Source: a virus. From it: 12,558 nucleotides of DNA. The stretch lies in the IMG/VR virus record IMGVR_UViG_3300044639_001767. One strand, given 5' to 3'. A program made the translations under genes and the position numbers. Below the pieces are notes generated by a model, which was not told where the DNA came from, did no database searches, and saw only the letters and a list, made by a program, of their open reading frames with translations. Positions 9,965 to 12,558 of the stretch are shown here, in pieces; the stretch's first letter is position 1, and every line of letters begins with the position of its first letter.

Positions 9965-10696
9965 TTATCTGTAGGGATTGGATCCTGCAAGACCACGATC
10001 ACGCAGGAATTGCTCGGGATCTTGTTTGCTTTGTTTGGCATCGTATTCTGCATCTGCCCTGTATTGGTCCCAAACGTCAGCAAGATATCCATAGGGATCA
10101 GTTTTGTGTTCTTTTTGGAACTCTTGCATTACCAAAGGATACACCATTACCTGCATCCAATCTCGCCAATCCAACCAAGATCTTGGATCAGTGTTGTTTC
10201 TAATATCCCACAAATCCATGTCAGGATTGCCAAACATGGCTTGTTGTGACTGAGGATCTCCATGACCTTTGATCACATCGTTGGCTATCTGTAACCATGC
10301 ATCATGTGGATCACCATCTGGAAAAACATCACCCATGGCCCAAGTGAACCTTTCGCTCATGTAACGGGCTAGATGTTTAAGAGCCTGTTTGGCTTGTGTT
10401 TTGGCACCTGTTCGGGGTCCACCTGGCATGGATTTTTTGATTTCTATCTTGCCCTTGAGCTTGGCCAGCACATCCTTGATGACTTCTTCTGGTTTGACAC
10501 TGCCCAGGCTCCAGTTGATGCCCACACGGATCATCCTCTCCAGATCAGCTTTGTTGATCTTGCCTGGCATTGCTGCTGCTTTTTGCATCACCACATCAGC
10601 TAGGTTGGCGATCCTGCTATCATAGTCTTCTGTGATAATTGTATTTGCGCTGCTTTCAATCAGCTGTCTGTAGTGTTGGAGATCTTGTATGGTCAT
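9965..10696 (-). CDS. Hypothetical protein of 243 aa (MTIQDLQHYRQLIE...), Trp/Asp-rich C-terminal half with no recognised domain. The 86-bp repeat copy A lies inside its N-terminal region.
   Basis: AAGGA lies 6 nt upstream of the ATG at 10694-10696. The track start at 10702 is TTG. The ORF is long and protein-like. Confidence 0.65.
   Translation of the reverse strand: MTIQDLQHYRQLIESSANTIITEDYDSRIANLADVVMQKAAAMPGKINKADLERMIRVGINWSLGSVKPEEVIKDVLAKLKGKIEIKKSMPGGPRTGAKTQAKQALKHLARYMSERFTWAMGDVFPDGDPHDAWLQIANDVIKGHGDPQSQQAMFGNPDMDLWDIRNNTDPRSWLDWRDWMQVMVYPLVMQEFQKEHKTDPYGYLADVWDQYRADAEYDAKQSKQDPEQFLRDRGLAGSNPYR
10511..10596. repeat. Copy A of an 86-bp direct repeat (ccagttgatgcccacacggatcatcctctccagatca...ccacat), lying inside the 243-aa CDS.
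   Basis: Aligned by hand with 12453-12538: 84 of 86 identical, mismatches at 10548 and 10588. Confidence 0.85.
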
Positions 10697-10891
10697 GCTC
10701 AATCCTTGCCATAAATGATAGTTTATTTATCAGGATCTTTGTTGATGCATGGCCCCACAACCCCGCCCACATCACGATGGAACTCAACTTTGGTGCCCAT
10801 TTTATTGTTAGCACTCAGTTGTTTGTCTGAGTTGACTTTCTGATGTGGAGGATTGACCTTACACCTGAACAACACATATTCCATCTTGCCT

Positions 10892-10949
10892 GCTGATACC
10901 TTTTTTTGCTCTTGGTTTGTATCAACAAGTCAAATATAGCGGTATCAGC
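10892..10949. repeat. 9-bp inverted repeat GCTGATACC ... GGTATCAGC separated by 40 nt (which contains a T7/A7 tract), in the intergenic region immediately downstream of the homospermidine synthase stop.
   Basis: Read directly. It is not followed by a T-run on either strand, so it is not a canonical terminator; it could be a protein-binding or RNA structure. Confidence 0.35.
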
Positions 10950-10968
10950 CACATGTGTCAATGTGTTT

Positions 10969-12372
10969 TTACACCACTCGGAAATTTTTGAATTGCCAGG
11001 GATCAGTTGTGTCCACATCTTCCACAAACAACCTGCCACGATCTTTGAGTGGAGTCCAATCAGTCCAAGAGCCAGTCATTTGCCCCATGTAGGGATCTGT
11101 TATGGCTAGGATTTGTTCATGAGGCAGTTCATCAGCTTCCACAATACCCAGCATGGGATTGTCAATGGCATACAAAATGCCTGCCAGCACTGGGGCCACC
11201 ACTTGTAGGCTGGTGGCATTGTTGTAGGGGGCTAGAGATCTGGCTGTATCAATGTCCAGTTGGCTGCCATACCAGTAGGCATAGTGATTGCCGTTGAAAG
11301 TTCCCATCAACAACACCCCCAGTTCATCCATGCCATCCTCAATTTCATTGACAATCAAACGCTGATGTGTTTGTTGTTGGAAATTTTTACCTGCCATTTC
11401 ATGAATGCTCAGCACAGCACTGTCACAGGGGTGATAGGCATAGTGAACAGTGGGTCTGTAATAATGATTGCTGAAATAATCACCAATGCTGATACTCTCA
11501 TTGTGAGTGATGATCCATCCACGATATTCTCCCTCATTGGGTGTCCAACTGCGGCATTGTGTCACACATCCAGGTCTGTTCAGCCAAATGGCTGTTTTGC
11601 ATCCCCAGCTGAATCTGTTGCCATCTGTGGGAAACATCTGTTCGTGCGTTCCCCAGCTCATTTCACTGGGTTGCAGTCCCTCACTGACAAATCCATCAAT
11701 ACTCCAGGTATTGACAAATTCATCTCTTTGTTTGGGGGCTCTAGGACGTTGAGTGTCTCTTTCAGCAATGTGGATCACCTTCAATCCCAATGTCTGGGCC
11801 AGTTTGCTCCATGCTTGCTGGGTTTGGGGAGGTGCAGATATTGCATGGTTTACCTGGGCAGCAACATGCAAAAGAGCTCTCTTGACAAAATGGTTCACCA
11901 ATCCTGGGTTGGCACCATGTGCCATGATGGCTGTGGCACCCAGAGGCTTGCCCAGATTCTGCCAGGTTCTCCTCATGTCCAGTATGTCCTGTCTGAGGCT
12001 GTAGTTGCTGCGACGTTCAGGACTGATTTTTGTATTGGTGTAATAGCCTTCCCAGGGTTCAATACAGGTATCCAAATACATAACATCCTTGCTCTCACAC
12101 CATTCCACCAGAGCTTCACTGCTGACATTCACACTCAAATTCACCAGCATGTAACCAGCCTGGAGATATCTTGCCAGTTCCGTTTGGTAATTTTGTTGTG
12201 TTATAGCACATATCACATGAGCAACACCATATTTGGCACTGATGTTGATGTTTCTATTATCCCCACCAATTATGGTGATGTTTTCAGCTGGGAAATGATT
12301 CAGCAACAATGGCAACAACCCACTGCCAATGCTGCCAAATCCCAAAATTACCAATCGCGGTGTTTGCTGCAT
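10969..12372 (-). CDS. hss: Homospermidine synthase (EC 2.5.1.44), 467 aa.
   Basis: N-terminal Rossmann GFGSIGSG. Blocks recalled from bacterial and chlorovirus homospermidine synthase: HIAERDTQ, FVNTWS.DGFVSEG, ITHNESISIGD, HYAYHPCDSAVLS, DELGVLL, NATSLQV, DPWQFKN. AAGGAG lies 8 nt upstream of the ATG. Confidence 0.8.
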   Translation of the reverse strand: MQQTPRLVILGFGSIGSGLLPLLLNHFPAENITIIGGDNRNINISAKYGVAHVICAITQQNYQTELARYLQAGYMLVNLSVNVSSEALVEWCESKDVMYLDTCIEPWEGYYTNTKISPERRSNYSLRQDILDMRRTWQNLGKPLGATAIMAHGANPGLVNHFVKRALLHVAAQVNHAISAPPQTQQAWSKLAQTLGLKVIHIAERDTQRPRAPKQRDEFVNTWSIDGFVSEGLQPSEMSWGTHEQMFPTDGNRFSWGCKTAIWLNRPGCVTQCRSWTPNEGEYRGWIITHNESISIGDYFSNHYYRPTVHYAYHPCDSAVLSIHEMAGKNFQQQTHQRLIVNEIEDGMDELGVLLMGTFNGNHYAYWYGSQLDIDTARSLAPYNNATSLQVVAPVLAGILYAIDNPMLGIVEADELPHEQILAITDPYMGQMTGSWTDWTPLKDRGRLFVEDVDTTDPWQFKNFRVV

Positions 12373-12398
12373 GTGTTGATCTCCTTTATCTACAATGA

Positions 12399-12558
12399 TT
12401 ATTTACAAAAAGGGGATTGTTCCACAACAAATACATGTGACCTTGCCGGCCCCCAGTTGATGCCCACACGGATCATCCTCTCCAGATCAACTTTGTTGAT
12501 CTTGCCTGGCATTGCTGCTGCTTTTTGCAACACCACATACCCTTGCGCCAATTGACTA
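12399..12558 (-). CDS. 3' end of an ORF entering from beyond the window (..SQLAQGYVVLQKAAAMPGKINKVDLERMIRVGINWGPARSHVFVVEQSPFCK*). It contains repeat copy B and may be a truncated or chimeric paralog of the 243-aa gene.
   Basis: The frame is open from the window edge to a TAA at 12399-12401. Its stop lies 27 nt before the homospermidine synthase start. Confidence 0.35.
   Translation of the reverse strand, partial: SQLAQGYVVLQKAAAMPGKINKVDLERMIRVGINWGPARSHVFVVEQSPFCK
12453..12538. repeat. Copy B of the 86-bp direct repeat, inside the C-terminus of a minus-strand ORF that enters from beyond the window. Both copies encode ..QKAAAMPGKINK(A/V)DLERMIRVGINW.. in frame.
   Basis: Same alignment as for copy A. 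Flanking sequence diverges completely on both sides. Confidence 0.85.

Follow-up and report, generated by a model that had tools for sequence, protein, structure and literature searches.

Direct repeats in one reading frame around a phage homospermidine synthase gene: a possible scar of recombination between co-circulating variants

The viral DNA stretch analysed here (IMG/VR record IMGVR_UViG_3300044639_001767, 12,558 nt, one strand; hereafter the window) carries a gene for homospermidine synthase (HSS) lying between two almost identical, directly repeated segments, one of which belongs to a neighbouring intact gene for a 243-amino acid (aa) protein. Comparison with related contigs points to a scar of recombination between co-circulating phage variants, in which the HSS module now lies between direct repeats that may enable it to loop out or to be amplified; we put the probability of this reading at about one half. 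The order and direction of the events, and the presence of all the features of the window's tip on one molecule, are what we infer. Four arrangements coexist, i.e. the major HSS-bearing arrangement (at least ten contigs), an HSS-less deletion (two contigs), that of the window itself, and a 1,942-bp cycle.

A repeat search of the window returns positions 10504-10596 and 12446-12538 as a direct repeat of 93 nt, with 95% identity and a spacing of 1942 nt. Its core (10511-10596 and 12453-12538) matches at 84 of 86 nt, the mismatches at 10588/12530 and 10548/12490 leaving exact runs of 8, 39 and 37 nt; the expectation for such a pair by chance in 12.5 kb is ~4e-40. Both copies are on the - strand, share a common codon phase, and have the product QKAAAMPGKINK(A/V)DLERMIRVGINW. 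The repeat search and the translations thus confirm the preliminary description of this DNA, which had reported two 86-bp copies, 84/86 identical, ~1.94 kb apart and in one frame. Copy 1 (10511-10596, - strand) comprises codons ~36-64 of the intact 243-aa gene, with ungapped similarity reaching 10504, and this stretch shows no differences in ten sister contigs (L001-L010) nor in the contig that forms the cycle (L011). Copy 2 (12451-12538, - strand) is a stranded fragment of the same gene, codons ~36-66, in a 'T-type' allele defined, on the gene strand, by T at 12530, T at 12490 and G after TGG. The proposal of a partial gene duplication therefore holds, since copy 2 repeats part of the 243-aa gene in the same orientation and codon phase. 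The interval between the copies holds HSS (10969-12372), a 53-aa open reading frame (ORF; 10723-10884) and the first 35 codons of the 243-aa gene, whose ATG is at 10696. The two 86-bp copies are real homologous sequence, and they do not mark the acquisition of HSS.

Exact look-up of the HSS and 243-aa proteins yielded the ten sister contigs L001-L010, from NCBI, ENA, JGI and Logan samples, which align to the window over as much as 12,446 nt at 99.5-99.97% identity. In every one the match to the window ends at base 12446; HSS is present, with a single copy of the repeat core, and copy 2 is found in none (0/10). Beyond this base they have a release-factor remnant, preceded by a 129-aa or a 36-aa gene, and, further out, tRNA genes and a GIY-YIG-like ORF. 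Since ten near-identical contigs diverge at 12446 without copy 2, the last 112 nt of the window are a minority arrangement.

The point of divergence, junction J (12440-12452, - strand; break at 12446/12447), lies 74 nt upstream of HSS and is where homology to the major arrangement stops, so that the window reads tip flank, T-type core, J, HSS, 53-aa ORF and 243-aa gene. The six bases at J (GGGCCG on the gene strand, 12447-12452) are an exact match to neither parent; the copy-1 counterpart is AGCCTG, and GGGCCG starts with G, as in the T-type allele. J interrupts two conserved ORFs, namely the release-factor tail, between FMQ and GHM, and the 243-aa gene, after GINW; because it cuts both, it can be regarded as a derived rather than an ancestral state.

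The frame of copy 2 runs on after GINW through 17 unrelated codons (GPARSHVFVVEQSPFCK, ending at a stop) from the region upstream of HSS. At its other side it is open, as was proposed for an upstream ORF continuing out of the window, but just 20 nt beyond copy 2 are visible there; because a tRNA gene lies within the equivalent open frame of an HSS-less sister contig (L019), a genuine long gene is improbable here. Look-up of short forms of the copy 2 ORF (50 aa and 37 aa) found no contig. A separate full-length paralog was considered as the source of copy 2, but neither the 90% cluster of the 243-aa protein nor a set of 1.84 billion protein representatives contained one.

That 90% cluster does include a 227-aa member, P0040, which reads VVLQKAAAMPGKINKVDLERMIRVGINWGLGSVKPEE internally and is located on two contigs, L019 and L020, from two JGI samples. 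L019 6160-6246 and L020 5371-5457 match window 12537-12451 at 87/87 positions, including both single-nucleotide polymorphisms (SNPs) of the repeat and the G after TGG; copy 2 can be identified as a fragment of the 243-aa gene allele of these HSS-less sisters. In L019 the 243-aa gene is present only from codon ~36 onward, separated by a 20-nt spacer from tRNA-Arg(tct) (6060-6137), and there is no HSS, 53-aa ORF or major vault protein (MVP) homolog within 13 kb. The preliminary description had suggested looking, in relatives without HSS, for a single intact paralog at this position. A single 243-like gene with the copy-2 allele is indeed there, but it is not intact, as in both contigs it is without codons 1-35, which are conserved across the 243-aa family.

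Imperfect 14-nt repeats (GCCAAnCTAnCnTG; L001 5649-5662 and 8084-8096) delimit the joint in L019, which has a CTG overlap of 3 nt. On comparison of these sequences, a separate ~2.43-kb microhomology deletion beside tRNA-Arg is the best account of the HSS-less state; it would have taken the 129-aa gene, the remnant of the release factor, HSS, the 53-aa ORF and the first 35 codons of the 243-aa gene. The homology of copy 2 to the gene starts at most 4 nt from this joint, and the ~90-nt length of the repeat follows from its being bounded on the left by the old deletion joint and on the right by J. L019 is itself a mosaic, as a patch of 804 nt, beginning at the core's left edge, shares 99.25% identity with the window in a background that is 87-92% identical to L001. 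It also has an inserted HNH gene, and a 378-aa gene at the place of the MVP-like gene; the tRNA-Arg region, L019 6060-6160, was compared with L001 5565-5662 and 8084-8096.

With the 52-aa reading of copy 2 as query, one protein was returned, P0001 (79 aa), in which residues 1-63 of the 243-aa protein are joined at GINW to the same out-of-family codons as follow copy 2. It is encoded on L011 (Logan, SRR27419058), a contig of 1972 nt whose first and last 30 nt are identical, giving a cycle of 1,942 bp, equal to the repeat spacing. L011 1-229 corresponds to window 10739-10511 at 100%, and L011 144-1972 to window 12538-10710 with 2 mismatches, both of them the repeat SNPs. The unit so closed (window 10505-12446, - strand) comprises one repeat, the 5' end of the 243-aa gene, the 53-aa ORF, HSS and the release-factor tail, and J is base-for-base as in the window, the odd GGGCCG included. 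A head-to-tail junction, as of a genomic accordion, is therefore present in both the window and L011. Upstream of J the sequence continues as the unit in L011, whereas in the window the 20-nt flank and two SNPs differ; the window contains one unit plus 112 nt.

Logan contigs are assembled at k=31, with once-seen k-mers dropped, and a 30-mer end repeat denotes a circular contig (PMC12424806). As only k-mers seen at least twice are kept, J is present in the SRR27419058 reads. The branch-free form of the cycle suggests, if the assembler behaves as expected, that the unit outnumbers its flanks in this sample, as a circle or a tandem array would, and L011 would then represent one of these rather than a graph effect. 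Its composition, with the flank and SNPs of copy 1 and then J, is that expected of a crossover in the 37-nt exact run nearest J. The preliminary description had envisaged a substrate for precise excision and had asked for reads supporting a deletion variant. A crossover from one copy to the other would indeed delete HSS with the reading frame kept, and the idea of an excision substrate has independent support from L011, a cycle of one repeat plus the intervening segment; the origin of the repeats as the footprint of an insertion did not stand. No recombinase or transposase domain was found in the unit (HSS, 53-aa ORF, chimeric 79-aa ORF), and no inverted repeat or att site at its boundaries, the repeat being coding sequence of the neighbouring gene.

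The most likely history is an exchange between HSS-less and HSS-bearing variants of a very large phage, within a hypervariable region that has many tRNA and homing endonuclease genes. In one form, a deletion-type genome, broken at codon ~67 of its truncated gene, would have been joined by illegitimate crossover to the inside of the release-factor remnant of an HSS-bearing genome; equivalently, a looped-out HSS unit could have integrated by homologous recombination into the truncated gene. The outcome in either form would be a 1.94-kb HSS module between direct repeats of 87-93 bp. Homologous recombination between the repeats might subsequently loop the module out or amplify it head-to-tail, and a crossover in the 37-nt exact run beside J would yield a circle or array with the copy-1 SNPs and J, as in L011.

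Some features of the data count against such a history. The evidence consists of assembled contigs, and J is seen in two assemblies only, exact-pattern scans of IMG/VR and JGI metagenome contigs having returned none. The window stops 20 nt past copy 2, and these 20 nt match neither the L019 spacer nor any other fetched sequence; because they are unlike the L019 spacer, the parent would not be L019 itself. GGGCCG at J is 2-3 bases off each of the candidate parents. If the window was assembled at k of 37 or less, the passage from J to the T-type allele could be a graph switch via a shared 37-mer, and what exists would then be a tandem duplication or circle of the major type; L011, assembled at k=31, is unable to link J to the SNPs.

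Much of this could also arise within the major genome type, by plain head-to-tail duplication (an 'accordion') or as a looped-out circle of the 1,942-bp HSS unit. J would then have formed where codon ~67 of the 243-aa gene was joined to the release-factor remnant by illegitimate recombination, the contig would have run round the cycle, and its last ~75 nt would have slipped onto the allele of a co-occurring HSS-less relative. L011, a closed cycle with the copy-1 flank and SNPs throughout the unit, fits this, as do the greater abundance of the unit relative to its flanks that a branch-free cycle suggests (an inference from PMC12424806), the weak microhomology at J (GCAnnGTCA), and the exact runs of 37 and 39 nt between the copies, which permit path switches at small k. 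Such a slip is opposed by the window being T-type at three positions and having a foreign left flank, all of them at most 50 nt apart and so read-linked if k was at least 55, the usual final k. Moreover, the six nucleotides at J are not the AGCCTG of copy 1, their first G being as in the T-type allele, and the terminal 20 nt, being unlike the L019 flank, would still require a further variant. Duplication within the major type is an alternative that we regard as unlikely. An assembly artefact was named in the preliminary description as a possible refutation; here it would be one at the contig end, with the last 112 nt wrongly attached and no molecule having two cores. It might be suspected from the position of copy 2 at the very end of the window, from the ten near-identical contigs without it, from the failure to find J and the copy 2 flank in the JGI or IMG/VR collections, and from the breaks in or near the core in two other contigs (L021 and that of P0035). 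The recurrence of J, base for base, in a separate Logan assembly, for which every k-mer had to occur at least twice, makes a pure artefact unlikely, and at J there is no k-mer common to both sides from which a false join could be made; we consider this explanation improbable overall, while allowing that the last ~75-112 nt could still be artefactual.

The history first proposed, in which a foreign HSS gene was inserted into an intact 243-aa-like gene and created the duplication in doing so, has the merit that the geometry fits an insertion with duplicated target sequence and that HSS-less relatives exist. It is contradicted by the neighbourhood of HSS in more distant relatives. In L012, whose 243-aa homolog is 65% identical, the order is release factor, HSS, 54-aa ORF, 244-aa gene, TilS and MVP; in L014 (45% identity) it is release factor, 243-aa homolog and HSS; and in L018 (42% identity) it is a small ORF, 243-aa homolog, HSS and TilS. 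Linkage of HSS to the 243-aa family thus extends across the whole group, the two gene orders being cyclic permutations of one another. As this neighbourhood is kept in relatives down to ~40% identity, HSS is old here and not a fresh insertion, and the repeat is not the footprint of its entry into an intact gene. Insertion is opposed likewise by the close relatives, the ten contigs at 99.5-99.97% identity, which have HSS without the repeat, by J cutting two conserved ORFs and hence being derived, and by the gene of the HSS-less relatives being N-terminally truncated through a microhomology deletion. The claim that the duplication arose when the polyamine gene was inserted is therefore largely refuted, and we see very little chance of its being correct; at most it might survive as the re-introduction of HSS into a variant that had lost it.

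Recombination between co-circulating variants, as preferred here, has recognisable counterparts in known systems. Tandem duplications in T4 and lambda, and the 'genomic accordions' of poxviruses, involve recombination between short direct repeats in the genomes of large dsDNA viruses; the window resembles these in having ~90-bp direct repeats around a dispensable gene, a head-to-tail junction whose period equals the repeat spacing, and gene-lacking variants. By contrast with them, its repeat seemingly derives from two separate illegitimate joints and not from one duplication. In Hendrix-type mosaicism, illegitimate recombination forms joints between related phages. The likenesses here are the sharp switches in identity (e.g. 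the 804-nt patch at 99.25% in an 87-92% genome), joints at 3-14-nt microhomologies, and a variable region with tRNA, GIY-YIG and HNH genes; the difference is that the joint in the window leaves a duplicated gene fragment that is itself able to recombine. There is also a likeness to Campbell-type integration, in that a 1,942-bp circle with one core would recombine with the truncated gene to give the window arrangement, and the reverse would give L011, but the unit is without an integrase, att site or replication gene and would rely on general homologous recombination, and the circle is putative.

Repeat-mediated loss and gain of dispensable genes is an already known kind of event, and the window is a structural polymorphism around an auxiliary gene, perhaps an intermediate caught in the act. 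If the repeats are on one molecule and active, this would be a case from nature of ordinary homologous recombination moving a phage metabolic gene among three states (present, absent, multi-copy), all of them visible in public metagenomes. It is a more doubtful extension that the HSS module is a copy-number-variable cassette in natural huge-phage populations, with the ~90-bp repeats enabling its loss, its regain from a circle and its head-to-tail amplification, i.e. a 'genomic accordion' acting on an auxiliary metabolic gene; the same mechanism could have caused the permuted HSS/243-aa order among relatives. More generally, a gene bracketed by repeats in a single contig is not to be equated with an acquisition footprint without sister genomes.

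The 467-aa product of the gene at 10969-12372 (- strand) matches solved HSS structures, with residues 6-466 aligned to 15-471 of PDB 2ph5_A (E 5.3e-138) and with 4plp_A at 1.6e-135, and has the Pfam domains Sacchrp_dh_NADP (PF03435, 4.9e-26) and Sacchrp_dh_C (PF16653, 1.9e-27). On these sequence grounds it encodes a genuine homospermidine synthase, and the earlier assignment is borne out by the full-length match and by both saccharopine-dehydrogenase domains. In the phage collection its identity is 41% with phiRSL1 hss and 33% with that of Achromobacter phage Motura. Virus-borne HSS is already known, and the phiRSL1 and PBCV-1 homologs are enzymatically active (PMC9992855). With PBCV-1 A237R, the hss of the Ralstonia jumbo phage phiRSL1, Motura and several Imitervirales the window shares a virus-encoded, full-length, bacterial-type HSS, here located in a large phage that has translation-related genes. 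It differs from the known cases in that its uncultivated lineage is absent from the phage and IMG/VR collections searched and in that its HSS, the activity of which is predicted, is always linked to the uncharacterised 243-aa gene.

The 53-aa ORF (10723-10884, - strand) has no family match; it is 75% identical to the 54-aa ORF in the equivalent position in L012. The 243-aa gene itself (9965-10696, - strand) is HSS-linked in relatives. Its family has 25 representatives among the 1.84 billion proteins, with conserved motifs FPDGDPHDA and NPYR, and members at window 9965-10696, L012 6533-7267, L014 240-998 and L018 611-1336. The protein matches nothing in Pfam, NCBIfam or PHROG, IMG/VR yielded no relatives of it when scanned, and its predicted all-helical model (predicted local distance difference test, pLDDT, 82) has no fold match in PDB or BFVD. 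In all relatives examined the gene adjoins HSS, in one or other of two orders, which suggests a functional link of the family with homospermidine synthesis, and such strict linkage across diverged huge phages makes the 243-aa helical protein a candidate partner in viral polyamine metabolism. In L018 the full-length gene is immediately preceded by an 86-aa ORF (351-611), a stand-alone paralog of the family's N-terminal domain, detected by profile comparison (hhalign 97.6%, E 2.8e-12) though not by BLASTP against the 243-aa protein, which found no similarity; the 79-aa junction ORF of L011 resembles it in size and content.

Between J and HSS is the tail of a class-I release-factor remnant (12386-12446, - strand; QGHMYLLWNNPLFVNNHCR, then a stop), which includes the HSS ribosome-binding region. 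The corresponding 42-aa ORF of L001 (6179-6307) has 81% identity with residues 143-184 of the L012 RF-1/PCRF protein and 61% with an ORF upstream in L014. In the lineage of the window the release factor is reduced to its last ~42 codons; in L012 the gene (4141-4845) consists of two ORFs, of 35 aa and 184 aa, a split that may reflect either gene decay or a prfB-like frameshift. Among the near-identical contigs the sequence upstream of HSS varies, with a 280-aa or 248-aa ORF and a 129-aa or 36-aa ORF; in L001 the 280-aa GIY-YIG-like ORF occupies 4593-5435 of this variable region, and a tRNA-like 49-nt direct repeat, 76% identical, is found at 2790-2838 and 3829-3877. Just past the HSS stop, within the unit, is a sigma-70-like promoter match (TTGACA-17-TATATT, 11/12; 10933-10961, - strand), which is a consensus match only, the regional count of such matches not being above that in shuffles.

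The terminal 20 nt (12539-12558, - strand; TAGTCAATTGGCGCAAGGGT on the gene strand), the left flank of copy 2, have no match, allowing up to 4 mismatches, in any fetched locus, nor in viral or JGI metagenome contigs. Their translation, SQLAQGYVVL, fits loosely with the family pattern xLA[DQ]..VV[LM]Q, which is weak evidence. Two other origins were tried and rejected, namely a piece of release factor, with copy 2 as a ~95-nt insertion and GCAAGG as target duplication (score 7.0 versus a background of 6.9 +/- 1.2), and part of a tRNA D-arm, for which the alignment score is at background. The hexamer GCAAGG (gene strand) is present on both sides of copy 2, at 12440-12445 and 12540-12545; it could be chance or the trace of a templated insertion, with no supporting similarity in the outer flank. 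As its ends lie 20 nt past copy 2 and in tail-fibre repeats, the window looks like a whole contig broken at repeats. L021 (1-40) ends 33 nt left of the core and the P0035 contig (JGI, 1787 nt) starts inside it; that other assemblies break within ~35 nt of the core fits a graph branch, with structural heterogeneity in several samples.

Searches of the phage collection with the DNA and proteins of the region returned nothing except distant hss genes and megaphage MVP-like genes, and an exact-pattern scan of GTDB genomes for the repeat core returned none. The matches of the MVP-like protein in the phage collection are only to uncultured megaphages of 462-735 kb (LR756500/501/503), at ~37% identity. 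Together with the tRNA, release factor, PTH2 and TilS-like genes, these matches point to a huge phage missing from the reference collections as the putative source. On the - strand the window has a tail-fibre gene, several small genes, and the MVP-like, TilS-N, 243-aa, 53-aa and 467-aa genes. The MVP-like protein (856 aa, 6601-9171) has major-vault-protein shoulder and repeat domains, and 9131-9733 encodes a PP-loop protein with the TilS N-domain only (TIGR02432, 1.9e-35). Auxiliary genes, listed with TilS-N at 3594-4061, 4504-4998 and 5708-6280, include a PTH2-like peptidyl-tRNA hydrolase, a malonyl-CoA-decarboxylase-like fragment, and an HNH endonuclease in a low-GC stretch. Like the breaks in sister contigs, the start of the window falls within the tail-fibre repeats; the tail-fibre-like gene (5-2185) has at least nine tandem repeats of 51 nt (17 aa, NTAVG-type) within window 1-663, and its C terminus has an endosialidase-chaperone (S74) domain.

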